From IMG/VR virus record IMGVR_UViG_2565956719_000013: 41,123 nucleotides of DNA. One strand, 5' to 3'. Under the pieces are notes generated by a model that was not told the origin of the DNA, ran no database searches, and saw only the letters and a program-made list of their open reading frames with translations. Of the stretch, positions 3,088 to 35,688 are shown piece after piece (the first letter of the stretch is position 1; each line of letters starts with the position of its first letter). The position numbers and the translations under genes are program-made. Origin of the DNA: a virus. Taxonomy: Duplodnaviria; Heunggongvirae; Uroviricota; Caudoviricetes.

Positions 3088-3370
3088 ACTTTCTCCTGTT
3101 TACTATCTATAAGCCAGTCAATTATTGATGACTAAACCCGCATAGTAAACCATATATGAATCATTATTGTTCCATATCATATATCTCAATAAAAGTACTA
3201 ATGATTTTACAGAACGAGCCAGCAGAGTGGGGGGGCAGTTGTACAGGAACCATAGACTTAATTTTGTATTTAATAATGCTATGGTGTAATAAACCTGAAC
3301 ATGTATTTAAAATACGTACTGATTCATGATAGAATTCAAAGATAACTTTTCACCAACTCCGTTTTTGATA

Positions 3371-3397
3371 CCCGCAATATTTTGCGGGCTTTTTTTT
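3371..3397 (+). terminator. intrinsic terminator oriented for + strand only
   Basis: stem CCCGCAA (3371-3377) / TTGCGGG (3382-3388), loop TATT, T8 tract 3390-3397 overlapping tailspike stop; no T-tract in the minus orientation. Confidence 0.5.
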
Positions 3398-6300
3398 AAC
3401 GTTCTTCCAGAGACTGAACCCGCTCTTTTATCTTATCCATTTCTCTGCGCTGCCATGCTGCCTCGATATAGAATAAGAGATCAGGTCTGACCCCCCATCT
3501 AGATCCTGCTGGCGTTATTTCAACGCGCTCAATGATGTCTTCTATTACCATCACTGGATTATCATCCTCATCAACAATGATGCTCCCGTCATTATCAGTC
3601 AGCGGCATTTCCCTTTGGCCAGTAATGACGTCATCATATACTGCGGGATAATCGTCATAGCAAAGAAAGGCATAGCGGCATGTTGTGCTTTCTTCTTCCA
3701 TGAGTCCGTGAGAAATAAGAACATCACGAAGTTGCTGCGCGATTACACCATGATGTATCCTCGCCCCTTCTTCCCCCTTTATAGCGACAGCGTTCAGCCA
3801 TTTATAAGCGATATACCTGACGTCACCCCAGGCATCCAGCAATGTTTCGTCAGGAGAGACCGGCTCTGTCTTTAATGTTCCGTCACTGGTAACCACAGGA
3901 TTGGAGCCAAGATAAACTATCGAGAACCTGTTTCCCGGACCACCAAGAGCATTTACATTATCAAGATAAGGTTTAACATCTCCGTTCTCAAAAAGATGTT
4001 CGAGTGCGTTATATACCGCGCGACGTGGAGTACTGCTTCTGGAACCATGCAACGTTATCATTGCACCATCTGCTGAAGACGTTGTTTCACCGCCGCTAAC
4101 GATTAATCTCTGAGCGGTAACATCATCAGACGGTACTTTCTTCGCAATAATGGCGTAATTACCCTCAAGTTTGACTTCCGCGCGAACTTGTCCTGATGTA
4201 CCTGCATGGACAGTCAGTGACTGGACGGCAACATCATCTGTGAAATCAACGGGTACAGGAACCGTCCTCACGCCTGACGTCGACATAAAAGTAGGAAGCG
4301 TTCTGTTAGGAGTGGCTCCGTAGACAAAATCCCTTGAAACAAATTCTTCCTGTTTAATTTTCACCCTGAAACAATACAAATCAGCCGGGTGACCATCGTG
4401 AACATAAGGATATTTTCTGTTGTTATCCCCTATGCTCCATGGGTTTAGAAAGTCTTCCCCACCGAAAATGTAGTACAGCCAGTTGTCTTTGATACAAACT
4501 GAACCAACACCAACCGCAGAGTTAACTATTCCGCCCTGATAAATCTGATCAGTAACATTAACCCACTCTACATTATCCAGACTCCACTCATTGACGTTAA
4601 CTCTGGTCATAAATGTTCTTGGATAATTTCCTGCATAACGGTTATCAGGTTCTCCTCCTTCCCACTCACCAAATGCGCGCTCACTGCCAAAAATAATCAG
4701 CTCATCGCCAACTTTGGCAAAAGGAAGGTTTGAGTGATGAACATTATTTGGGAAGCGAAGAGAATTCCATGATGTACCTAAATCAGAGCTTCTGTGCAAT
4801 GAACTACCGGGTTGAGTACTTAATGTCCCCCTGGTCGTCAGATACAGAATGCCATCATAATATTTTACACATGGCTCAGATGCATTCGCCTCATATTCTG
4901 CAGGTATGCGTCTGCGAACAAAGCTACCAGGAGAACCGAAAGCATCAGAGAAATAGAGTATCCCAAGCTCGCGTGGACCAATATCACCATTATGGTAGCC
5001 AACAGCAAAACTGTTATCGCTAATCGTCGCAAAACTGTGAATCTCAGTAACAGGAGTGCTTCCGTCAACAAAAGAAGGAATAGTTCCAAGACTGGTTTTT
5101 CTCCATGGTGACGAGTGAAATGATGTACCAAAACTCCAGTATCTACCCTCGTTATTCTGATCCACATCCTGGGTATTTTGCGTCGTAACTGTAAAAGTAT
5201 TTTTATCAATAACAGTAGTCACCGTCATATTCCCGGTAACACCTGTAACACCAGAGTTTGAGAAGTTGACAAAATCACCAGCAAATAATCCGTGATCAGT
5301 AATGCGAATATAAGCGACTTGCTGATTTGCTGCTTTCGTTATACCACCATAAACGCGAAGGCTGCGACTCATTGGGCGATCCCACAACTCTGCAACCTGC
5401 AGTTTATTTCCGCTCACGGTCCGCGTCTCAATTACAGCAAAAAGGCGATTTCTGACAACCCCCATACTCATGCAGTGATAGTTAACTGTGGGATAGTTTT
5501 CATGTAAATCTGTAAGCCATTCCGGCGTTGTCCAGGTCTTCCCGTCATCTCCTGAGCGAACCCATGCAACATGGAGGTTATTTACACCATGGCGGTCTCC
5601 AGCCATAAAAGGCGCATAGATGACATTGTCATATACAAACGTTTTATCCTGCGTCCAGGCGTTGTACCACGGTGTATCTGTAATTTTAAATAACTCTCCC
5701 TGGATAAAATCTTCAGAAGCATAAAAAAGAGGCTGGCCCGGTATTCTCTCAAATAAAAAACGAGCATTTTTAAATCGACTGACATCCGGAAGAGTTGATA
5801 CTTTAAAAGTAAGCCCTAATCCGTCAATTTTATAACCTGGAGATGAGGCTTCAAGGCACGCGCTTATTGCAGTGGAATCGTCATTTATACCATCACCAAC
5901 AGCTCCAAAATCTTTGGGGCTAATAGCATCACGCATTTTATCCTGGAACGTTCGGTACACAGCCCCAGAACCATACTGAATAAACCAACCAAAACCACCA
6001 ACAACCCCGGCGATTGCAGCATCGACATAATTACGCATTGAGCGATTATTTACAGCGTCCTGCTCAAATGATGGATCTGCAAGGTTAGAAATTTTGTTTT
6101 GCTTTGCATCGTAATATTTTGCAAGCAAAGATGGTTTCATCAATGCACGTCTGAACCACCCAAAACATTGCTGGATCAGCATCGTCAGGTAGTCAAAGGC
6201 ATCTTCATGCACTTCGGGGAAAAATTTTCCCTGATTGCGAAGGTCTGTCTCCTGCACTACATCAAGCACACGATCTATCGTAATTCGCCATCCAGTAGCA

Positions 6301-6515
6301 AGCGGAGACGGAAGAACCACAGAACCGCCACTATAAGTGCCCGCCCCAGTTACCGTATAACCGGTATCCAGAACCAATTCTGTTACGTTCCCGTTCAGGT
6401 CAGACACCTGAACAACCAGGTCTGATTTTCTGAAAATTCGAAAAGTATACGGAAACGACGTCGTAACGCCGTTACCGGTGTATTCGTTGTGGTCAACTTC
6501 GGTTGAGACCGTCAT
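3396..6515 (-). CDS. tailspike: T7 gp17-like N-terminal anchor, Asp-box domain, C-terminal intramolecular-chaperone-type domain; candidate endosialidase
   Basis: 1039 aa; GGAG RBS; N-terminal pattern resembles T7 tail-fibre N-domain; two Asp-box motifs (SGDDGKTW, SSDLGTSW); C-terminal SDGTLK...IAQQ... region resembles S74-type autocleaving chaperone domains. Confidence 0.85.
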   Translation of the reverse strand: MTVSTEVDHNEYTGNGVTTSFPYTFRIFRKSDLVVQVSDLNGNVTELVLDTGYTVTGAGTYSGGSVVLPSPLATGWRITIDRVLDVVQETDLRNQGKFFPEVHEDAFDYLTMLIQQCFGWFRRALMKPSLLAKYYDAKQNKISNLADPSFEQDAVNNRSMRNYVDAAIAGVVGGFGWFIQYGSGAVYRTFQDKMRDAISPKDFGAVGDGINDDSTAISACLEASSPGYKIDGLGLTFKVSTLPDVSRFKNARFLFERIPGQPLFYASEDFIQGELFKITDTPWYNAWTQDKTFVYDNVIYAPFMAGDRHGVNNLHVAWVRSGDDGKTWTTPEWLTDLHENYPTVNYHCMSMGVVRNRLFAVIETRTVSGNKLQVAELWDRPMSRSLRVYGGITKAANQQVAYIRITDHGLFAGDFVNFSNSGVTGVTGNMTVTTVIDKNTFTVTTQNTQDVDQNNEGRYWSFGTSFHSSPWRKTSLGTIPSFVDGSTPVTEIHSFATISDNSFAVGYHNGDIGPRELGILYFSDAFGSPGSFVRRRIPAEYEANASEPCVKYYDGILYLTTRGTLSTQPGSSLHRSSDLGTSWNSLRFPNNVHHSNLPFAKVGDELIIFGSERAFGEWEGGEPDNRYAGNYPRTFMTRVNVNEWSLDNVEWVNVTDQIYQGGIVNSAVGVGSVCIKDNWLYYIFGGEDFLNPWSIGDNNRKYPYVHDGHPADLYCFRVKIKQEEFVSRDFVYGATPNRTLPTFMSTSGVRTVPVPVDFTDDVAVQSLTVHAGTSGQVRAEVKLEGNYAIIAKKVPSDDVTAQRLIVSGGETTSSADGAMITLHGSRSSTPRRAVYNALEHLFENGDVKPYLDNVNALGGPGNRFSIVYLGSNPVVTSDGTLKTEPVSPDETLLDAWGDVRYIAYKWLNAVAIKGEEGARIHHGVIAQQLRDVLISHGLMEEESTTCRYAFLCYDDYPAVYDDVITGQREMPLTDNDGSIIVDEDDNPVMVIEDIIERVEITPAGSRWGVRPDLLFYIEAAWQRREMDKIKERVQSLEER

Positions 6516-6619
6516 GTTAAATCTCCAGATAGTCGCAGCACCCGTTGCGCCGCATATCTGGTTATTCTATTACCTGAAAAACCACATATGGATAGAAAGA
6601 CTGTAAATACGAATAGATA

Positions 6620-6634
6620 TTACCTTTCAGGTAA
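6620..6634. promoter_or_regulatory. operator-like dyad TTACC-N5-GGTAA
   Basis: ATTACCtttcaGGTAAT, perfect dyad between tailspike start (6515) and SOS-box gene. Confidence 0.55.
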
Positions 6635-6671
6635 TTTGCAAAACGTGCTGGATAGCAAACAAATTATTTGC

Positions 6672-6691
6672 TACTGTATAAATATACAGTT
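6672..6691 (+). promoter_or_regulatory. LexA (SOS) box
   Basis: TACTGTATAAATATACAGTT; CTGT-N8-ACAG core at 6674-6689, ~20 bp upstream of ATG 6711. Confidence 0.7.
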
Positions 6692-6710
6692 ATTGCATGG
6701 AGAAGATAAG

Positions 6711-6968
6711 ATGCAGCAGTATCACTATCCACTGGAAGACGGATTTACCGAAAGGATTCACACGCCGGGAGGCGTCAGGTCACTGGTGGAGGGATCGCAC
6801 TTGATGAAATTACTCCGGGATCTCGATAAGGATGGATTTAATGTCGATGGCCCACTTGCCGAACTGACTGCACTGATTAACTACGTCACCAGCTCACAGA
6901 TGTCTATGCAGGATCTGCAAACACATCTCGACTATTGTGCCGAACAATTACGAAAACAAACCAGATAA
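6711..6968 (+). CDS. SOS-regulated small protein, paralog of antirepressor C-terminal domain (candidate antirepressor)
   Basis: GGAGAAG RBS; 85 aa; ~35-40% identical by eye to C-terminal ~80 aa of the 7284..7994 product (shared GV, LM-LL, DG, AELT, QTH positions). Confidence 0.6.
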   Translation: MQQYHYPLEDGFTERIHTPGGVRSLVEGSHLMKLLRDLDKDGFNVDGPLAELTALINYVTSSQMSMQDLQTHLDYCAEQLRKQTR

Positions 6969-6999
6969 GATTTGAAATTACCAATAGGAGTGCTTATAT

Positions 7000-7014
7000 T
7001 TACCTTTGCGGTAA
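7000..7014. promoter_or_regulatory. operator-like dyad TTACC-N5-GGTAA
   Basis: TTTACCtttgcGGTAAA, perfect dyad upstream of antirepressor leader. Confidence 0.55.
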
Positions 7015-7104
7015 ATTTACATCGCACTCCTCTTGTGCCATAGTAATCGGGCACTGGCAAAATCCAGTGCCGGGATTGGCGTCCCGGGTTACTAAGTGGC
7101 GCAT

Positions 7105-7127
7105 ACCACGCCAGACGTGGTTTTTTT
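7105..7127 (+). terminator. intrinsic terminator/attenuator in antirepressor leader
   Basis: stem ACCACG (7105-7110) / CGTGGT (7116-7121), loop CCAGA, T7 tract to 7127. Confidence 0.55.
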
Positions 7128-7283
7128 ATGCGTTAAGCACAGCTATATCCGAATTATGGTGGGCTGGGCAGGGGTCCGAAAGGACGCCGGTACCACTTAG
7201 GCCGGTACGCCAACCTTGTCCAGTTCACCACCAGTAATTGGCGTTGCGGTGGTGATTAAAATCACTAAGTGGAGATAACCACC

Positions 7284-7994
7284 ATGGCTAATGCTCAAAC
7301 TGCCATCTTCAAATTTGAATCTGTTAACCCTATCCGTTCCATCATTATCGATGGCCAACCATGGTTTGTAGCCCAAGACGTTTGTAGTGCGCTGCGTATC
7401 CAAAACGTCACCCAAGCACTTGAAAAACTGGATGATGATGAAAGGTCTATGTTCAACATAGGGCATGAACATCGTGCAATTTTTGACAGCCGAGTAAAAG
7501 AGATCAACATTATCTCCGAGTCAGGCCTCTACACACTGATCCTCCGCTGCCGCGACGCAGTGACACCAGGCACTATCCCCTACCGCTTTCGTAAATGGGT
7601 TACAGGTGAGGTTCTTCCTCAGATCCGCCGCACCGGAAGTTACATTAAAAACTCGCTCCCGCAGGAAGAACGCATAAAGATGGTTGCCGACCAGGTAGCC
7701 AACGCCACGGCGTCAGCAGTAATGCAGGCGATGAAGATAGAGAACAAAACCTACAGTGCCCCACTGAAGCCCGGCTACCGTAGCCTGATTCATTCGCCGT
7801 CTGGTGTTCTCGGCCTGACGGAGAACTCACTGCTGATGAATCTGCTGAACCAGTTACAGGACGACGGGCACGACGTATCGGGCGCGGCGGCGGAGCTGAC
7901 CACCATGTTCTGCTACATCGTCGGTGTGAGCAAATGCCTGCGTGATATCCAGACCCACGCGGAGTACATCAACGACAAGGCAGGGTTCTTCTGA
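7284..7994 (+). CDS. antirepressor with N-terminal Bro-N domain
   Basis: ATG 7284 with AAGTGGAG RBS; N-terminus FKFESVNPIRSIIIDGQPWFVAQDVCSAL matches Bro-N pattern; C-terminal domain paralogous to 6711..6968 product. Confidence 0.7.
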   Translation: MANAQTAIFKFESVNPIRSIIIDGQPWFVAQDVCSALRIQNVTQALEKLDDDERSMFNIGHEHRAIFDSRVKEINIISESGLYTLILRCRDAVTPGTIPYRFRKWVTGEVLPQIRRTGSYIKNSLPQEERIKMVADQVANATASAVMQAMKIENKTYSAPLKPGYRSLIHSPSGVLGLTENSLLMNLLNQLQDDGHDVSGAAAELTTMFCYIVGVSKCLRDIQTHAEYINDKAGFF

Positions 7995-8065: not shown

Positions 8066-8080
8066 TTACCTCAAGGGTAA
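8066..8080. promoter_or_regulatory. operator-like dyad TTACC-N5-GGTAA
   Basis: ATTACCtcaagGGTAAG, perfect dyad ~60 bp upstream of ATG 8140. Confidence 0.55.
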
Positions 8081-8139: not shown

Positions 8140-8772
8140 ATGAGAACAAATACAACAAGAAAAGCGATGCCATACATTATCCCAGAAGCAGATTTCGATA
8201 GAAAACTGAACATGTCTGAGAAGAACACTAGTCACACCGAAAGCTACTTAGCGAAAGGTGTGGTTGATTTCGTTCTTCCGGGATTCACAACACCTTATGG
8301 TTATCGCCTTGTAAAATCTTGTAATGGCGATCATTACAGAATGATTACTACCAGCGATACTCCAGAAACGGTGTATGCGGTTAAGTTAATCTTTCGGGAA
8401 GATATCGTCGAAGCCAAAAGAACATGTACGCAGATCATGGTATGGCGTACGCCTAATGTTATTCATGACCGTGCTGTTCATGGTTTGCCTCAGATTTTTT
8501 TTCAGTTCTTCCTAGAGCAATATGCGATCGTTGTATCTGATGAGCAACAAACAATCGATGGGAGAAGATTCTGGGAAAGAATGATTTCTTGGGCTATAAA
8601 CACCCCGGGATATAATGTATACGTTTCAGATGGCTCTGAAGAAGATAGACCTCTTAGCTTCATGACATCATGGGATGATTTCTATAGCCAGTGGGCTGAT
8701 TTCTGTTGGGGCAGTGATAAAGATGTGCATACCCACAGACTACTGGTTATAAGCAAAGATAAACTGCATTAA
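8140..8772 (+). CDS. hypothetical protein, 210 aa, orphan accessory gene
   Basis: GGGAGGA RBS; own upstream dyad and downstream terminator; no motif recognised. Confidence 0.65.
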   Translation: MRTNTTRKAMPYIIPEADFDRKLNMSEKNTSHTESYLAKGVVDFVLPGFTTPYGYRLVKSCNGDHYRMITTSDTPETVYAVKLIFREDIVEAKRTCTQIMVWRTPNVIHDRAVHGLPQIFFQFFLEQYAIVVSDEQQTIDGRRFWERMISWAINTPGYNVYVSDGSEEDRPLSFMTSWDDFYSQWADFCWGSDKDVHTHRLLVISKDKLH

Positions 8773-8777
8773 TAGAA

Positions 8778-8798
8778 GCCCGCAGCGCGGGCTTTTTT
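8778..8798 (+). terminator. intrinsic terminator
   Basis: GCCCGC-AGC-GCGGGC hairpin followed by T6. Confidence 0.7.
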
Positions 8799-8870: not shown

Positions 8871-9032
8871 ATGAAAAAAGCATTTGCTGCACTGTTCGTT
8901 TTGTTGTCTCTGGTAGCTTCAACTCAGGCCTTTGCCGGTCGTTGTCAGCACGACAGCGATACCGCCGCTGACGGCTCCCGCTGCGGTGGGCGTTCTGCGG
9001 ATTCCCGCCCGGGCGGCGGTGGCATTCGTTAA
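8871..9032 (+). CDS. small secreted Cys/Gly-rich peptide, hypothetical
   Basis: ATG 8871; signal peptide MKKAFAALFVLLSLVASTQAFA; 53 aa; weak RBS. Confidence 0.3.
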   Translation: MKKAFAALFVLLSLVASTQAFAGRCQHDSDTAADGSRCGGRSADSRPGGGGIR

Positions 9033-9555: not shown

Positions 9556-12030
9556 TTATTGCGGAGTGACATCCTGAGGTCGCCACCAGTATGTCTGATT
9601 AAACTCTTTCTTCGAACGTTGCTCCATTTTACGCAAATAGCCTGGTGAAAAATACTCCTGCATCTGGTTCAAGATCATATGATCGAGAGCCGCCTTTAAG
9701 TACCAGAGATTCGCACCTGGCATCAAACCTTTCCCCAGCTTCACCAGATCACCACCAGTCTGCTCACTCTTCCCTTCCACAGCATTTAACGGTATGCCCT
9801 GAGCAATCTTCACTACGTCATCAACCAGACCAGCTACCGGGCCAAGCATCGACGCCAGCGCGCCGCTTCCGTACCTAGTGTGATCTGACAATAAAAAGTC
9901 ACCGTAAAGGCCAAGGCCACCACCTTTCAGTAGAGCACCAAGCCAGAATTTTGCGGCACCTTCTCCTGTCATCTCTCGAGGATTACGACCAGACGCAAGG
10001 TCGTTAAGTTGCTGCGACAAAGCGCCAAGAATGGTCGTACTGGCAATAAACGTCGCAATATATGCCGCACGCCCACCAGCAGACGGCATACCCATAGCGC
10101 GTGACCAGTGACGCATAACAACCGAGATAGGGAACGATTTAAACAGGAAAACACGTCTCGTTAATTCACCTTTCCATGTTCCACGCTGAATACCAGAACC
10201 GGTTATCAGTTGCTCACGTGCTCCCGGTGTAATAACAGCCATATCAACTTCTTCAGTTACGGCACCGAGCAGTTTACGCATTGCCTCAAATTTCACTCGT
10301 TCAGGCTCACCAAGATGTTTAACTGCTGAATCAGGGATACGCATAATGCTTTCCGGTGTCAGCATCGTATTATTACCGTTCCCCCAGTCCTCCTGTTGCG
10401 CCAGCTTCCATACGCTCCAGTCTGTGTCAGTAATCCCTTTGCTTTTCAGGATACGAAAATCAGAGTCATCGAGGCTACGAAGGTCTGGTGTCCGTGACAC
10501 TACTTCTCCCAGGCTTCCCATCATGGTTACGCCATAGGCGCGCTTGTGCGCATCTGACCATGCTGTAAGCCCACTGGCACGCATTACGGCCGTTGCCGCC
10601 CAACGAGACACTGACGGCCCCATATTATCCATCGCCCAGCGGTTAACGCTGCCAAGTAGAGATTCCATCGCCAGACCAGCGCGGCGCGCCCGCGCAAGTT
10701 CTGTACGGTTCGTTGGGTCCATAGCTTCAAGCTGGTTGCGGAATAACTGGTTCATTGGAAGGTTGGTAACCTTCGCAGACAGATACATGGTTCCAAGATC
10801 AGAGAACGATGACAGCAACGCGGATCCGAGTCTGCTGGCAACCAGCCAGTTGCGGATATTGTCAGACCATCGCGCGATGTGCGGATTCGCTACAGGCTGT
10901 GTCTTTCCGGAAATAAAGTTGTACAGATTCTCTGTGTTGTTCGCCAGCCGCTCGACTTTACCGGTTTTACTCGGGTTAGCTGTTGCCGTTTCTGCCTTCA
11001 CCTGATCAAGAAGAGAGCGGAAAACATGATCGGGGTTTGGGCCATATGTTTCCACCAGTGCAATATCTTTACTGATACCTTCAAGGTGACCGACCATGAT
11101 TTCCCATAGAGAGCGATCGCCATAAAGTTGCTGATATTGCAGATAGGAATCTGCATCTTTGAAATGTATCTGTCGTGATGCATTACCACGGTTAGCACGT
11201 GCGCCGGAAATTCGCATTCCGGTATCAGTAAGCTTATTCAGCCCACCAGTAGCGATCGTGTTATAAGCCTCTCCAAGAAATGCAGACAACTCGGCATCGT
11301 TCATCAGTTGTCCATCGGCTCGGGTATAATATTTGCGATCCAGCTTACCTATAACATCGCTAACCCATTTATCTTTTGATACCGCCCCAACCTTTTCCAT
11401 AGAATGATGTTGAGGGATCCCCCAGTTTTCGAGATAGCCAATGTCCCCACCAGCATCATTAAACCGGCGGCGCAGCAGCTCTGTAACTTCTCTCCACGCC
11501 TTAGCACCTTTTCTTGCTTTAGCATTGCCAGTATTTTGCCCTCGCATTTCATATACCAGATCACGCACGCCAGCTTCATCTTCAAACAGGCCAAAAAAGC
11601 GAGGATCAACTGCTTCAAATGCCTCCTGCAATTGACTCAATGCATAATCACGAGTGGCTTTTGTTCTGGACTCAACAGAGAGGAAATTCGATTTACCGTC
11701 TGCATTAAAAGCAATAGTACGGTTAAGAGCGCCAAGTTTCCCATCAGCCCCTTGATAGCTATTGATAAATTTATCCAATCTCTGACGTGCGGCTATAGTG
11801 AGGGCCACACGACGTTTCTTTAATGCCGCTTCTCGCTGTAATTCTTCAGATGCCAATTGTGCTGCTCGATATAGCCGCTCTGATTCGGAAAGTTGTCTCC
11901 ACGACATCGGGTCATCACGAGCAATGGAGCGCATATTTCGATAAATGCGGTCTTCAATGTTCTGTATTTCTCGCGCCGTTAACGTGCGCTGCGCCGCCTG
12001 CTGAACCGCTTGTATACATTCCTGTCTCAT
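9556..12030 (-). CDS. large internal virion / ejection protein
   Basis: 824 aa; GAGAGG RBS; position after two other large proteins matching T7 gp15/gp16-like core order; hydrophobic segments near C-terminus. Confidence 0.55.
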   Translation of the reverse strand: MRQECIQAVQQAAQRTLTAREIQNIEDRIYRNMRSIARDDPMSWRQLSESERLYRAAQLASEELQREAALKKRRVALTIAARQRLDKFINSYQGADGKLGALNRTIAFNADGKSNFLSVESRTKATRDYALSQLQEAFEAVDPRFFGLFEDEAGVRDLVYEMRGQNTGNAKARKGAKAWREVTELLRRRFNDAGGDIGYLENWGIPQHHSMEKVGAVSKDKWVSDVIGKLDRKYYTRADGQLMNDAELSAFLGEAYNTIATGGLNKLTDTGMRISGARANRGNASRQIHFKDADSYLQYQQLYGDRSLWEIMVGHLEGISKDIALVETYGPNPDHVFRSLLDQVKAETATANPSKTGKVERLANNTENLYNFISGKTQPVANPHIARWSDNIRNWLVASRLGSALLSSFSDLGTMYLSAKVTNLPMNQLFRNQLEAMDPTNRTELARARRAGLAMESLLGSVNRWAMDNMGPSVSRWAATAVMRASGLTAWSDAHKRAYGVTMMGSLGEVVSRTPDLRSLDDSDFRILKSKGITDTDWSVWKLAQQEDWGNGNNTMLTPESIMRIPDSAVKHLGEPERVKFEAMRKLLGAVTEEVDMAVITPGAREQLITGSGIQRGTWKGELTRRVFLFKSFPISVVMRHWSRAMGMPSAGGRAAYIATFIASTTILGALSQQLNDLASGRNPREMTGEGAAKFWLGALLKGGGLGLYGDFLLSDHTRYGSGALASMLGPVAGLVDDVVKIAQGIPLNAVEGKSEQTGGDLVKLGKGLMPGANLWYLKAALDHMILNQMQEYFSPGYLRKMEQRSKKEFNQTYWWRPQDVTPQ

Positions 12031-21590: not shown

Positions 21591-21641
21591 CTTCTTTCTC
21601 CATTAGTGGGTCTGTTACGACCCACAGGTTAATAACAGGCG

Positions 21642-25534: not shown

Positions 25535-25624
25535 ATCAATGACTCCGTACGCAATTAAATTATTACCAATTTAACCACATATGATTTATTTATCGTAGAT
25601 AGTTGACATTTAACGCACGAATTA

Positions 25625-25639
25625 TTACCTTTCAGGTAA
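25625..25639. promoter_or_regulatory. operator-like dyad TTACC-N5-GGTAA
   Basis: ATTACCtttcaGGTAAG, ~90 bp upstream of the portal-operon first ORF. Confidence 0.55.
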
Positions 25640-25961
25640 GCAAATGGTTCATTCCGGTTATTAACCTGACTGGCTTGTCGTTAAATTGAACAGGTGGAGT
25701 GAGCTTTTATTTTGAGCAGTACGGCGTATGGCACATGCGCCGATAGCGGTCTGGATACGTTTAAGGGGCACCCTCCCTTGCTCGGGCAAACGAACCAGGT
25801 AGCCGGAATGTGCAAGTCGAGCGGTTTTATTCCGCGCACGGGGATTCACCATCCCGGCGATTCGGTGTGACGCCTCGGAAGAGACGAGGGTACAACGATG
25901 AGAGCATTTATGGAGCCGCGACAAAGTGTGGTGCCTTAACAGGCTAAGTGCTCTCAGCGTT

Positions 25962-26038
25962 GTGGCATTAGCTCAGTCGGACAGAGCAACCGCCTTCTAA
26001 GCGGTTGGTCGCAGGTTCGAATCCTGCATGCCACGCCA
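25962..26038 (+). tRNA. tRNA-Arg (anticodon UCU)
   Basis: 77 nt; acceptor stem GTGGCAT/ATGCCAC, anticodon stem ACCGC/GCGGT with loop CTTCTAA, T-arm GCAGG-TTCGAAT-CCTGC, discriminator G, CCA encoded. Confidence 0.85.
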
Positions 26039-26123: not shown

Positions 26124-26241
26124 ACAGCAGGACGCCATTGCGATGACTTCATGCTGTAAACCAGTACAGCCACGGAAGGCATAACTCATTGCTTCCAGTT
26201 CGCCCGGTTCGCAGGGCATTTTTTTAAGGTGAGATTAGACT

Positions 26242-26613
26242 ATGAGTGAAAAAGACATTGAATCTGAAATTCAGGCTAAAGGTTTAGCCGCGCCGCGCGT
26301 TACGCCAGACCATATCGAGAGCATTATTGCTCAGGAGGCATATTTCACAGCAGAAGATGGTGCCTTTGGCGTAGCCATAAAAGCGAAACATACTGGCGGA
26401 GAGGTAAACTACCAGCCGCACGAATCACTTTCTCTGCTGACGTTCTGCGTCCTGGTGCTGCGCAACGGCTTCACCGTCACCGGAGAGAGCGCCTGTGCAA
26501 GCCCGGAAAACTTTGATGCAGAAATTGGTCGGAAGATTGCCCGACAGAATGCTGTAAACAAAATCTGGATGCTTGAAGGTTACTTGCTGAAGCAGAAGTT
26601 AAGCGAGCAATAA
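26242..26613 (+). CDS. Gp49-like small phage protein (N4 Gp49 / Sf6 gp66 family, from memory)
   Basis: AAGGTGAG RBS; 123 aa; C-terminal pattern FDAEIGRKIARQNAVNKIWMLEGYLL recalled for this family. Confidence 0.45.
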   Translation: MSEKDIESEIQAKGLAAPRVTPDHIESIIAQEAYFTAEDGAFGVAIKAKHTGGEVNYQPHESLSLLTFCVLVLRNGFTVTGESACASPENFDAEIGRKIARQNAVNKIWMLEGYLLKQKLSEQ

Positions 26614-34584: not shown

Positions 34585-34815
34585 TCATGAGTAGAAGAAG
34601 TATGCCAGTTCTGCTTTTGAGCGCAGCCATTGTCTTGTTTTACAGGCTTTAAAAAGCCCATTCATCAATACTTTACCTGGCATTTTGCGCTTACCTGTTA
34701 AGTGAGTCTGGATATAGTGACTCGTCGTTCCGGCTTCCTGTGCGAAGGCTTCACGCTCATCCGGAGTAAGTGCAAGCCAGTGCTTTTTGAAATCGAAATG
34801 TCCGTTATCGCTCAT
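34585..34815 (-). CDS. Cro-like small DNA-binding regulator
   Basis: 76 aa; HTH-like EREAFAQEAGTTSHYIQTHL; divergent from CI-like gene; transcribed toward replication genes. Confidence 0.55.
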   Translation of the reverse strand: MSDNGHFDFKKHWLALTPDEREAFAQEAGTTSHYIQTHLTGKRKMPGKVLMNGLFKACKTRQWLRSKAELAYFFYS

Positions 34816-34882
34816 AGCTATTGCCTGATATTTATTTCAGATAATAAATATTCACCCATAAGGTAACAAAAATCAAGGATAG

Positions 34883-34898: not shown

Positions 34899-34913
34899 TT
34901 TACCTGTTGGGTA
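34899..34913. promoter_or_regulatory. operator-like dyad TTACC-N5-GGTAA in switch region
   Basis: TTTACCtgttgGGTAAT between cro-like and CI-like genes. Confidence 0.6.
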
Positions 34914-34969
34914 ATATTGCTTTAAATTGAATCATCTACTGATTCATATATGAGGCGATTTTCCAGAAA

Positions 34970-35554
34970 ATGAAAAGTATCCAGGACGTCCGCAGGCAAA
35001 ATCTCAACGACTTGATCGACCGTGAATTCAATGGTGTTCAGACGCGGATGGCAGAAAAACTTGGAACTCAGGCAAATCTGGTAAACCGCTGGGCTCTTGG
35101 CAAGAAGGTTATCGGCGACCAGGTTGCGCGAAAAATTGAAGCTGCCGCCAATAAACCCCGTAACTGGCTTGATATTGATCGCTCGCTTTCTCAGGAGGGT
35201 TTTCAGCCTGTCGGCCCGAGCGATATAGGTCAGCTGGCGGCTCACAACCTGGAACGCTGGATGAGCGAAAGCCGCGACCTTTCAACGCAGGGAAAACTAC
35301 ACCGCGCATCCGGCGTCGCCCAGGTGACAATCAGCCGCCTGTTAAACAATGAGGTCAGCGTTTCCATTTCCACCCTGGAGAATGTTGCATCCGCATTCGG
35401 GCGTCACGGCTATGAACTACTGATTCACCCGCACGACCCTGCGACTATCAACTATGACCGCTCACGCTACGCATTGTTACCCGAAACCGAGAAAGCAAAG
35501 ATCGAAAGTTACATTGAATTTGTCATCAACCAGAACGAAAAAAACAAACAATAA
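34970..35554 (+). CDS. CI-like repressor with two HTH domains, no S24 peptidase domain
   Basis: 194 aa; HTH-like segments QTRMAEKLGTQANLVNRW and SGVAQVTISRLLNNEVSVSISTLENVASAF; no Ser-Lys protease region; poor RBS; 7-codon upstream mini-ORF ends in ATGA at the start. Confidence 0.65.
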   Translation: MKSIQDVRRQNLNDLIDREFNGVQTRMAEKLGTQANLVNRWALGKKVIGDQVARKIEAAANKPRNWLDIDRSLSQEGFQPVGPSDIGQLAAHNLERWMSESRDLSTQGKLHRASGVAQVTISRLLNNEVSVSISTLENVASAFGRHGYELLIHPHDPATINYDRSRYALLPETEKAKIESYIEFVINQNEKNKQ

Positions 35555-35611: not shown

Positions 35612-35626
35612 TTACCTAATGGGTAA
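35612..35626. promoter_or_regulatory. operator-like dyad TTACC-N5-GGTAA
   Basis: ATTACCtaatgGGTAAT downstream of CI-like terminator. Confidence 0.55.
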
Positions 35627-35673
35627 TTTTTTTAACTCATATCTATTGACATCAAACCAAATACGCATAATTA

Positions 35674-35688
35674 TTACCTCAACGGTAA
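35674..35688. promoter_or_regulatory. operator-like dyad TTACC-N5-GGTAA at early rightward promoter
   Basis: ATTACCtcaacGGTAAC; TTGACA at 35646-35651 upstream; ~20 bp before ATG 35708. Confidence 0.55.

Follow-up and report, generated by a model that had tools for sequence, protein, structure and literature searches.

Two antirepressor modules, probably aimed at one repressor, in an epsilon15/phiV10-like prophage of E. coli

The locus studied here is best explained as two antirepressor modules that are both aimed at one repressor, Rep, a reading to which we assign a probability of about 0.8. Module 1 appears to be controlled by LexA. Module 2 appears to be controlled by Rep together with an antisense RNA, in the manner of P1 immI and of Gifsy-1 isrK-anrP. 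Judged by its sequence, the window, by which we mean the whole stretch of 41,123 nucleotides that was analyzed, is an epsilon15/phiV10-like (Uetakevirus) E. coli prophage, and the locus is its antirepressor region. The DNA of phiV10, HEMP4, TL-2011b, and ZX5 is 92 to 98% identical to the window, and the gene order is epsilon15-like. By homology, the locus is the E. coli counterpart of the switch of Salmonella phage SPC32H, in which DNA damage frees a small antirepressor gene from LexA and its product acts against an uncleavable repressor, and this mechanism is already known. The fresh point is the adjoining second antirepressor, which is predicted to be RNA controlled and carries a copy of the Ant domain. 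No description of this composite of both modules was found in the searchable literature, nor any of a repressor-binding domain that is present twice and placed under two orthogonal controls, one being a protein repressor plus LexA and the other an antisense RNA.

The gene of module 1, ant (6711-6968, + strand), encodes an 85-aa antirepressor that is an ortholog of SPC32H Ant on the basis of PDB 5D50_E, tblastn, and PHROG 450. The 85-aa gene proposed in the sequence-only reading holds, with an ATG at 6711, a stop codon at 6966-6968, and a GGAG at 6699-6702. Its product matched chain E of PDB 5D50, which is SPC32H Ant, over residues 2-84 with an E value of about 4e-47 (4.1e-47). The identity to SPC32H Ant is about 85-88% (88% by tblastn), and Ant is 97.6-100% identical in phiV10, ZX5, and TL-2011b (tblastn). 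The locus thereby has the small Ant protein (about 86 aa, homologous to SPC32H Ant) that is a trait of the SPC32H-type system. A word-index protein search with the small Ant gave 136 matches, all of them members of the small-Ant family and none of them a fusion. The family is labeled "unknown function" in PHROGs and "hypothetical protein" in PGAP, and there is no Pfam or NCBIfam model for it, although the crystal structure has been solved. No gene other than the small one lies between the tailspike gene and gp18 in SPC32H and epsilon15, so that small Ant is sufficient by itself. The SPC32H Ant/Rep pair was reportedly described by Kim & Ryu in 2013 (J Virol 87:11775) and by Kim et al. in 2016 (PNAS 113:E2480), with the structures PDB 5D50 and 5D4Z. 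According to one review, SPC32H Ant is produced upon LexA cleavage and binds and inhibits the repressor (PMC7380047), and another states that tetrameric Ant binds two Rep dimers, breaking the Rep tetramer (PMC9638917).

Upstream of ant, TACTGTATAAATATACAGT at 6672-6690 is a near-consensus LexA box, and the CTGT-N8-ACAG core that the sequence-only reading had placed at 6674-6689 was found exactly there (CTGTATAAATATACAG). As delimited by pattern search and conservation, the SOS box TACTGTATAAATATACAGTT spans 6672-6691 (core 6674-6689) and lies 21 nt upstream of the ant ATG. This 20-mer agrees at 18 of 20 positions with TACTGTATATATATACAGTA, which we take to be the E. coli LexA consensus. The loose pattern CTGT-N8-ACAG has 3 sites in the window against 0.55 expected, and the strict pattern TACTGTATNNNNATACAGT has only the ant-box site against 0.02 expected. 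The loose sites at 21612 and 26154 were rejected as LexA sites, having GC-rich cores and failing the strict pattern. CTGT-N8-ACAG is retained in phiV10, TL-2011b, SPC32H, and epsilon15, and the left half-box of the Klebsiella phage BUCT711, ATGT, has one mismatch (alignment A1). The single difference between SPC32N and SPC32H in this intergenic region is a C-to-A change within the ACAG of the box (alignment A1).

It had also been proposed that the box overlaps the −10 region of ant. This is plausible, as two candidate −10 hexamers fall inside the box: TACTGT (6672-6677), which pairs with a conserved TGGATA at 6649-6654 across a 17-nt spacer, and, alternatively, TATAAA (6677-6682). However, because the consensus scan misses the ant promoter, with no site of at least 9/12 at the box region, we only infer this overlap. 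The LexA box at the ant promoter, another trait of the SPC32H-type system, was found, with the exact hexamers being putative. The divergent tailspike/ant intergenic region also contains a Rep-type operator of the TTACC-N5-GGTAA pattern, TTACCTTTCAGGTAA (6620-6634), which most likely serves the leftward tailspike promoter. In the epsilon15 record, the homologous site is annotated "protein_bind repressor" next to an IHF-site annotation, and the operator occurs again, together with its flanking block, ahead of the late operon at 25625. The tailspike of the window is an endosialidase.

The proposed target of Ant is the product of rep (34970-35554, + strand), a 194-aa repressor without an autocleavage domain (PDB 5D50_A, Pfam). 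Rep matched chain A of PDB 5D50, SPC32H Rep, over residues 1-190 with an E value of 4e-42, so that the homology covers both domains as expected of the SPC32H-type system. The Pfam scan placed HTH_3 at residues 106-147 and a weak YdaS_toxin HTH, below the Pfam cut-off, at residues 21-61. It found no Peptidase_S24 at E 0.01 or better, and Rep does not fall into the lambda CI/LexA-type autocleavable class. The description of the repressor as having tandem HTH domains and no autocleavage domain is borne out at the level of a domain scan, with a weak second HTH. Rep is 100% identical in phiV10, ZX5, and others. Its identity to SPC32H Rep is 42% overall, 52% in the N-terminal domain, and 38% in the C-terminal domain. 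Because Rep is 42% and Ant 85-88% identical to the SPC32H proteins, conservation of the Ant-Rep interface is not guaranteed.

The pattern TTACC-N5-GGTAA has 13 sites in the window against 0.73 expected, clustered around rep and at every operon boundary, and the homologous epsilon15 sites carry repressor-site annotation. Two of these Rep-type operators (34852-34866 and 34900-34914) lie between a cro-like gene (34585-34815, − strand) and rep. Downstream of rep, the operators at 35612-35626 and 35674-35688 flank the early-left promoter (35646-35674), whose operator is the one at 35674-35688. A further operator (8066-8080) lies upstream of a 210-aa ORF of unassigned function (8140-8772); PADLOC and NCBIfam scans of this ORF, Ant, and the Bro-N protein gave no match.

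Taken with the box at the homologous position, the orthology of Ant and Rep to the SPC32H proteins supports the earlier proposal that induction works through a LexA-controlled antirepressor and not through repressor cleavage. In a lysogen, host LexA bound to the 6672-6691 box would silence ant, as is established for the SPC32H ortholog. DNA damage would lead to cleavage of LexA and production of the 85-aa Ant, which, by homology to SPC32H Ant/Rep (PDB 5D50), would bind and dismantle tetrameric Rep. By the same homology, Rep would then leave the roughly 13 TTACC-N5-GGTAA operators, and all phage transcription units would be derepressed.

The putative second antirepressor is a 236-aa protein encoded at 7284-7994 (+ strand) with matches to Pfam Bro-N, 5D50_E, and PHROG 130 and 450. 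Its Bro-N domain (PF02498) occupies residues 17-112 (7332-7619; E = 9.5e-20; score 71.5 bits, cut-off 25.6) and is followed by a helical linker, after which residues 155-231 (7746-7976) form the Ant-like C-terminal domain. This domain matched 5D50_E with an E value of 2.2e-13. The paralogy that the sequence-only reading had noticed by eye was confirmed by BLASTP: Ant and residues 155-228 of the Bro-N protein are 42% identical over 74 aa without a gap (E = 2e-15). The paralogs have 13 invariant positions in common (alignment A4). Only two Ant-like copies were found in the window by tblastn. A third copy, hinted at by "3 places" in HEMP4 and TL-2011b, was rejected, the best extra tblastn match having an E value of 0.021 over 32 aa. 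The AF2 model of the full Bro-N protein had a mean pLDDT of 46.8, with the Bro-N half below 50, and the C-domain alone was modeled as a two-helix hairpin with a pLDDT of 80. A Foldseek search of the PDB with this C-domain model had no match that reached E 0.001, and it missed 5D50_E. Of the proposed comparison of the two proteins by alignment and structure, the alignment was thus positive and the structural part was negative, and because Foldseek recovered no 5D50, the homology of Ant and the Ant-like domain rests on sequence (E = 2e-13 and 2e-15).

A protein search with the C-domain gave 31 proteins, many of them partial, whose N-terminal domains are in some cases Bro-N and in others AntA/AntB. 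Phages whose Rep is identical differ in the Bro-N domain, which has been swapped (66% identity), and agree at 99-100% in the linker and Ant-like domain. The Ant-like domain and Rep vary together in identity, with paired values of 100/99, 78/78, and 45/52. We infer from these sequences that the Bro-N protein would also bind Rep via its Ant-like domain. In ZX5, which encodes identical Ant and Rep, overexpression of the homologue ORF4 lowered lysogens from 1e9 to 1e6 and rep mRNA by 75% (PMC9782041). That 2022 study treated the Bro-N protein alone as "the" antirepressor and left LexA unmentioned (PMC9782041). In phiV10, a frameshift lies within the Ant-like domain, and module 2 is therefore dispensable.

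The stretch between ant and the Bro-N gene, with isrK, C4, and an operator, was overlooked in the sequence-only reading. A promoter-like site, TTGAAA-17-TATATT (6972-7000, + strand; 10/12 in the consensus scan), is conserved in relatives (alignment A2). Its −10 ends at the start of a Rep-type operator between ant and isrK, TTACCTTTGCGGTAA (7000-7014; TTACC-N5-GGTAA pattern), the same geometry as that of the early-left promoter and the operator at 35674-35688. Across 7 phages, the half-sites of the operator are invariant and the 5-nt spacer is freely variable (A2). A second promoter-like site from the consensus scan, the putative P-isrK (7016-7044, + strand), reads TTTACA-17-CATAGT with a TG extension, and its predicted start at about 7051 coincides with nucleotide 1 of isrK. 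TTTACA is retained in 6 of the 7 phages, and TGCCATAGT is invariant (A2). The operator at 7000-7014 overlaps the first promoter-like site and abuts the −35 of the second.

The RNAs that follow are all on the + strand. The isrK-like RNA (7051-7127; Rfam RF01394, 67.7 bits, gathering score 50) is a structural homologue of P4 seqA, has an intrinsic terminator at 7105-7127, and carries box a1 (AUUGGCGU, 7075-7082) and box b1 (CUAAGUGG, 7092-7099). The C4-type antisense RNA (7152-7235; Rfam RF01695, 66.0 bits, gathering score 45) carries box b2 in its loop (CCACUUAG, 7193-7200) and box a2 (ACGCCAA, 7207-7213). The leader of the Bro-N gene (7237-7274) contains the C4 targets, namely, box a3 (AUUGGCGU, 7237-7244) and box b3 (CUAAGUGG, 7265-7272), the latter overlapping the Shine-Dalgarno sequence GGAG at 7271-7274. 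Both Rfam matches exceed the gathering scores in the window and in 6 relatives, and isrK and C4 are present in 6/6 relatives with the Bro-N gene and in 0/3 relatives without it. Box-level pairing matrices were used in place of full-length RNAduplex, whose duplexes over-extend. In each of the 7 phages, the cognate C4/leader and C4/isrK boxes pair along their full length (7/7, 8/8, or 9/9), which most cross-class combinations do not; the compensatory changes form 3 box-a classes and 4 box-b classes. Folding of the leader sequesters the Shine-Dalgarno sequence and the AUG, and the whole RNA has a z score of −4.4. No icd/orf45-type coupling ORF is conserved upstream of the Bro-N gene in the window. 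The sole small ORF in the cassette (34 aa, 7096-7200) terminates within the C4 loop, leaving 84 nt to the Bro-N ATG, and the phiV10 cassette, read from the aligned sequence, has a different 35-aa ORF. No terminator was predicted between ant and isrK.

In P1 and P4, the antisense RNA is cut from the same transcript and has two short boxes that pair upstream and downstream of itself. The downstream target covers the RBS of the antirepressor operon, which also has an operator for the primary repressor. The window likewise has the two boxes complementary to an upstream site and a downstream RBS site that characterize a C4 cassette. The tandem promoter-like sites would drive the isrK-like RNA, the C4-type RNA, and the Bro-N protein. 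C4, which pairs with the leader across the Shine-Dalgarno sequence, would block translation, and IsrK, bearing the same two boxes, would act as a decoy for C4, as suggested by P1 c4, P4 CI, and Gifsy-1 IsrK. The Bro-N protein might then be a reinforcing step once Rep falls or an SOS-independent route to induction. The "two-gene split architecture" suggested earlier is misleading, as small Ant is complete alone and the Bro-N gene is separate, with its own promoters, operator, and RNAs. Because isrK, C4, and a Rep-type operator lie between the genes, we regard them as two antirepressor modules and not as one split gene.

More tentatively, and in a reading that we hold to be less likely than not, the modules could act on the one repressor in two stages, as a commitment circuit, with SOS and Ant acting first and the IsrK-unmasked Bro-N protein acting second. 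As Rep falls, the promoter overlapped by an operator (6972-7014) would open, and IsrK would titrate C4, unmasking the ribosome site of the Bro-N-fused Rep-binding domain. With no predicted terminator on the way from ant to isrK, the LexA-controlled transcript would carry IsrK as its 3′ end. If true, such a circuit would be a positive feedback that locks in induction, and P-isrK could, like IsrK in Gifsy-1, serve as a trigger that is independent of SOS.

It can be argued that the Bro-N protein hits other repressors, those of related heteroimmune prophages, in anti-immunity or cross-talk, and that small Ant handles its own Rep. In favor of this, the Ant-like domain and Ant share only about 42% identity, the Rep-type operator on the Bro-N operon implies that this operon cannot start the induction of its own prophage, phiV10 does without an intact Bro-N protein, and antirepressor cross-talk is documented for Gifsy/Fels-1 (PMC3121763). 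We nevertheless consider this unlikely, since the identity of the Ant-like domain goes with that of the phage's own Rep, at 99% where Rep is identical despite the exchange of the Bro-N domain, and since the ZX5 homologue lowered the lysogeny of its own phage. More doubtful still is the idea, in the sense of the earlier "split" proposal, that the two proteins act as a unit and that the Ant-like domain and small Ant form mixed tetramers, with the Bro-N protein recruiting or tuning Ant and not binding Rep. SPC32H Ant is a tetramer according to a review (PMC9638917), the paralogs share the 13 invariant positions, and the genes are adjacent with no predicted terminator from ant to isrK. However, SPC32H and epsilon15 manage with small Ant alone, the genes are separated by an insertion of roughly 0.8-1.1 kb in TL-2011b and several E. 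coli genomes, and the Bro-N gene is served by promoters and RNA control of its own.

The LexA control of module 1 could also be questioned. It seems highly improbable to us that the LexA-like palindrome is no working SOS operator and that ant is controlled by Rep via 6620-6634 or expressed at a low constitutive level. Although the ant promoter is not pinned down and a Rep-type operator lies about 54 bp upstream, the box has 18/20 consensus positions, is unique at the strict pattern, is conserved across genera, and is where SPC32N differs from SPC32H. In addition, the recurrence of the 6620 operator at the late operon and the epsilon15 IHF annotation fit a late/tailspike promoter.

The locus was found in 535 of 5426 complete E. 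coli genomes, K1 strains among them. The O157:H7 phage phiV10 encodes the same Rep and an almost identical Ant, and so does TL-2011b. The source of TL-2011b is an O103:H25 outbreak strain. As the mechanism itself is not new, the value lies in annotation and in the prophage biology of pathogenic E. coli. With the SOS wiring through Ant recognized, DNA-damaging antibiotics are predicted to induce these prophages. The paired Ant-domain proteins would be a case of natural module shuffling, in which the repressor-binding domain is kept constant and the N-terminal domain and control logic are exchanged, and the locus offers a tractable system for the question of why one phage keeps two routes to the same repressor.

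The likeness to 186 Tum and the Gifsy prophages that the sequence-only reading had drawn stands at the level of function. Coliphage 186 Tum and Gifsy GfoA/GfhA are likewise small proteins under LexA repression that bind and disable a repressor of the non-cleavable type. However, the repressors belong to different families, Pfam, PHROG, and NCBIfam profile scans gave no match of Ant to the Tum or DinI family, and the closest relative of Ant is SPC32H Ant. In N15, a prophage that is a linear plasmid, a LexA-controlled antirepressor is needed for induction (AntC; Mardanov & Ravin 2007; PMC3121763). The Bro-N domain recurs in the N15 protein gp30 (43% identity over residues 7-151), but its match shows no Ant-like C-terminal domain, and one LexA-controlled operon holds the antirepressor genes of N15, whereas in the window LexA appears to govern only the small gene.

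In Gifsy-1, the mRNA for the antirepressor arises by read-through and is translationally inactive (Hershko-Shalev et al. 2016, PMC4825925). The isrK-orf45-anrP-isrJ unit resembles module 2 in having a promoter, IsrK with a leaky terminator, a processed C4/CI-like RNA (STnc1160), and an antirepressor gene. However, AnrP (STM2616) is unrelated in sequence to the Bro-N protein of the window (E = 24), the orf45 coupling ORF is not conserved in the window, and Gifsy-1 has no pair of Ant paralogs. A general design of a LexA-controlled antirepressor plus an isrK-controlled paralog fusion was rejected in Gifsy-1, where AnrP showed no similarity to the 73-aa ORF after dinI, presumably GfoA (E = 8.2). 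P1/P7 immI (c4-icd-ant) and P4 CI/seqA/seqC share with the window the two-box antisense RNA, the RBS target, and the repressor operator. The window differs from P1 immI in lacking an icd-like gene, in having a Bro-N/Ant-domain fusion and not P1 Ant as the antirepressor, and in having an SPC32H-type Rep and not C1 as the primary repressor. SPC32H has a Rep that is 42% identical and no isrK, C4, or Bro-N gene downstream of its ant. Its likeness to module 1 extends to an orthologous Ant, a homologous two-domain Rep without a peptidase domain, a LexA box at the same position, the location of ant between the tailspike and gp17/18 genes, and the operator half-sites TTACC/GGTAA.

Ant, the 85-aa product of a plus-strand gene at 6711-6968, is the homolog of Ant of Salmonella phage SPC32H (88% identity, tblastn). 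It matched one PDB entry, chain E of 5D50, "Anti-repressor protein" (E 4.1e-47, residues 2-84), and shows identities of 97.6-100% in phiV10, ZX5, and TL-2011b and 84% to epsilon15 gp19. The gene proposed from the sequence alone was recovered with ATG at 6711, GGAG at 6699-6702, and the stop codon at 6966-6968. A crystal structure exists for the Ant family, but neither Pfam nor NCBIfam has a model of it; PHROG 450 carries the label "unknown function", and in hundreds of E. coli genomes PGAP names the product "hypothetical protein". The 194-aa repressor Rep (34970-35554, plus strand) matches chain A of 5D50, "Repressor", along its entire length (E 4e-42). Its description as a tandem-HTH repressor holds, with a weaker HTH-type match at residues 21-61 (YdaS_toxin, short of the Pfam cut-off) ahead of HTH_3 at 106-147, and the claim that it lacks an autocleavage domain agrees with the Pfam scan, in which it had no Peptidase_S24 match.

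The LexA box CTGTATAAATATACAG is present at 6674-6689, as claimed. The loose LexA-box pattern occurs at three sites in the window against 0.55 expected, and the strict 19-mer TACTGTATNNNNATACAGT has a single match, at the ant box, with 0.02 expected. In an alignment of the tailspike-ant intergenic stretch from seven phages, the box coincides exactly with that of SPC32H, and the sole difference between SPC32H and SPC32N in this stretch is a C to A change in the ACAG half of the box. Kim and Ryu reportedly found in 2013 that this mutation makes Ant constitutive and SPC32N virulent-like. The proposal that the box overlaps the -10 region stands in part: both plausible -10 hexamers, TACTGT (6672-6677, 17 nt after a conserved TGGATA) and TATAAA (6677-6682), lie inside the box, but the consensus promoter scan found no site of at least 9/12 at ant. 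Even with this negative scan, a non-functional box would be highly improbable, considering its uniqueness and its exact coincidence with the SPC32H box. A weak CTGT-N8-ACAG with a GC-rich core at 26154-26169, about 75 bp upstream of a 123-aa Phage_gp49_66 ORF (26242-26613), is probably not a LexA site.

The Bro-N protein, a second antirepressor (7284-7994, plus strand), carries an Ant-like C-terminal domain. The similarity first seen by eye was confirmed by pairwise alignment, in which Ant aligns without gaps to residues 155-228 (42% identity, E 2e-15); the C-terminal 80 residues also match SPC32H Ant directly (E 2.2e-13), and tblastn found no third Ant-like copy in the window. The N-terminal half is an ordinary Bro-N domain (E 9.5e-20) that most resembles N15 gp30 and other Ant proteins. 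Full-length relatives, 18 of 618 matching records, come only from Uetakevirus-like phages, and related Ant-like C-domains can also follow N-terminal domains of the AntA/AntB type. In E. coli phages whose Rep is 98.5-100% identical, the Bro-N half has been swapped (66% identity to the window in TL-2011b) and the linker and Ant-like domain remain 99-100% identical. The identity of the Ant-like domain tracks that of Rep (78% and 78%, respectively, in Tyrion; 52% and 45% in the Klebsiella phages). This swap pattern would be expected if the Ant-like domain were a Rep-specific module with an interchangeable N-terminal half. ZX5 shares Rep and Ant with the window, and its Bro-N protein is 81% identical; overexpression of this protein (ORF4) brought lysogens down from 1e9 to 1e6 and rep mRNA down by 75% in a study whose authors overlooked the small Ant and the LexA box (PMC9782041). 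With these observations, it is unlikely that the Bro-N protein targets heterologous repressors. Co-assembly with Ant seems less likely still. In phiV10 the Bro-N gene (phiV10 3262-3941) is frameshifted within the Ant-like domain, giving 194 aa and a 29-aa ORF; therefore, either the second antirepressor is dispensable or the phiV10 record has a sequencing error.

The 15-mer TTACC-N5-GGTAA occurs at 13 sites in the window, compared with 0.73 expected. Five flank rep (34515, 34852, 34900, 35612, and 35674), and the remaining eight lie at operon boundaries or beside gene starts, three in the ant region (6620, 7000, and 8066) and the others at 25625, 28775, 28793, 32507, and 32569. Homologous sites are annotated as repressor-binding in the epsilon15 GenBank record. 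Based on enrichment, position, and annotation, we infer that these are putative Rep operators, a set that looks like a P1-C1-style global operator set. The operator at 6620-6634 is repeated with its flanks upstream of the late operon at 25625 and is thus probably an element of the tailspike promoter and not of ant. The stretches 6516-6680 and 25555-25720 (minus strand) have in common the operator and the CATATGTGGTT and GGTAATA blocks, a candidate late-promoter architecture for both the tailspike and the late operon under Rep. Between the E. coli and Salmonella phages, Ant is 85-88% identical but Rep only 42% (N-terminal domain, 52%; C-terminal, 38%). Ant has diverged far less than the repressor it targets, which may allow cross-induction between heteroimmune relatives.

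The 315 bp separating ant from the Bro-N gene, missed by the sequence-only reading, is not a mere spacer: it holds two RNAs that exceed their Rfam gathering scores, isrK (7051-7127, 67.7 bits) and the antisense RNA C4 (7152-7235, 66 bits). The two RNAs occur in all six relatives having the Bro-N gene (phiV10, TL-2011b, Tyrion, and three Klebsiella phages) and are both absent from those without it, SPC32H, epsilon15, and BUCT711, so the Bro-N gene arrives as a cassette with its RNAs. In SPC32H and epsilon15, ant is the sole gene between the tailspike and gp18. C4 has two boxes: the loop of its second hairpin contains CCACUUAG, and ACGCCAA follows immediately 3'. Each is complementary to isrK (CUAAGUGG, AUUGGCGU) and to the Bro-N leader, where AUUGGCGU lies at 7237-7244 and CUAAGUGG (box b) at 7265-7272, overlapping the Shine-Dalgarno GGAG (7271-7274). 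Across seven phages, box a falls into three sequence classes and box b into four; cognate pairs are fully paired (7/7, 8/8, or 9/9) in all seven, most pairs mixed from different classes are not, and isrK, C4, and the leader show three-way compensatory covariation. The read-through RNA (7051-7300) folds into a strong structure (z = -4.4), in which a local hairpin also buries the Shine-Dalgarno sequence and AUG.

Two promoter-like sequences precede isrK. In TTGAAA-17-TATATT (6972-7000), the operator 7000-7014 starts at the last base of the -10, the same geometry as in the early-left promoter by rep (35646-35674, operator 35674-35688). The second, TTTACA-17-CATAGT with a TG extension (7016-7044), has a predicted start at about 7051, nucleotide 1 of isrK. 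Since the stretch from the ant stop codon to isrK has no predicted terminator, LexA-controlled transcripts may end at the isrK terminator, delivering IsrK with Ant. In TL-2011b and some E. coli genomes, an insertion of about 0.8-1.1 kb separates ant from isrK and would break this coupling. The isrK-C4 cassette (7040-7290) has DNA-level matches in 256 phage records, about 170 of them Stx-converting phages, and precedes unrelated antirepressor genes in the Uetakevirus relatives and Gifsy-1 examined; it is a widely shared portable control module.

The mechanism put forward from the sequence alone proved to be the published one for this protein family, given the homology of Ant and Rep to those of SPC32H (PMC7380047, PMC9638917). 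There, Ant is synthesized once LexA has cleaved itself, and it disables the repressor through protein-protein contact (PMC7380047); the DNA-binding form of Rep is a tetramer, which breaks apart when an Ant tetramer engages two Rep dimers (PMC9638917). By this homology, LexA would keep ant off, SOS would release Ant, and Ant would take Rep apart, opening all Rep-controlled units. In the lysogen, Rep at 7000-7014 and C4 at the ribosome site would both keep the Bro-N antirepressor silent. A drop in Rep, or a rise in IsrK titrating C4, would then allow it to be made and to reinforce Rep inactivation. Because IsrK triggers Gifsy-1 induction during stationary phase and in response to several stresses (PMC4825925), an SOS-independent input is a reasonable alternative role.

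The DNA around the locus is 92-98% identical to Escherichia phages HEMP4, TL-2011b, vB_EcoP_ZX5, and phiV10, all of the genus Uetakevirus (epsilon15-like podoviruses), and the gene order is that of epsilon15. The tailspike (3396-6515, minus strand) is an endosialidase of the K1 type (End_beta_propel, E 1.4e-233) that carries an S74 intramolecular chaperone, suggesting that the phage is specific for E. coli with a K1 capsule. E. coli O7:K1 strain CE10 has the ant region at 98.8% identity. A 1.6 kb stretch of the ant locus is present in 535 of 5426 complete E. coli genomes. A short plus-strand insert separates the tailspike from the gp17-like gene (9556-12030, minus strand), which is followed by the remaining late operon. 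Besides ant, the insert contains a 210-aa ORF (8140-8772; phrog_1349, unknown function), preceded by a Rep-type operator and with no match in Pfam, NCBIfam, or PADLOC, and then a 52-aa membrane "moron" (8874-9032, phrog_14503); both look like cargo genes. A terminator-like hairpin at about 8776-8797, after the 210-aa ORF, was read by eye and is unlisted by the terminator scan. A tRNA-Arg (UCU) gene lies at 25962-26038.

Every sequence-testable feature of the SPC32H-type system was found in the window, and the sequence-only reading is a correct rediscovery of a characterized system in an uncharacterized host phage. The likeness it drew to coliphage 186 Tum and Gifsy extends to functional analogues (Tum and GfoA) and no further. 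A paralog pair as a general design was rejected, as it fails in Gifsy-1. Only the arrangement of two adjacent Ant-domain antirepressors, one under LexA and the other under Rep/C4, was not found described in the limited literature covered; the two SPC32H papers may mention the Bro-N homologues. The tandem promoter-like sites of the window, one of them putatively under the primary repressor, resemble P51a and P51b of P1. The locus also has the sequence features of the C4/isrK cassette family, apart from a conserved coupling ORF (icd or orf45). The pairing of C4 with isrK and the leader works on the same principle as P1 c4 and as P4 CI with seqA and seqC, and the Gifsy-1 study describes IsrK as a structural homologue of seqA (PMC4825925).
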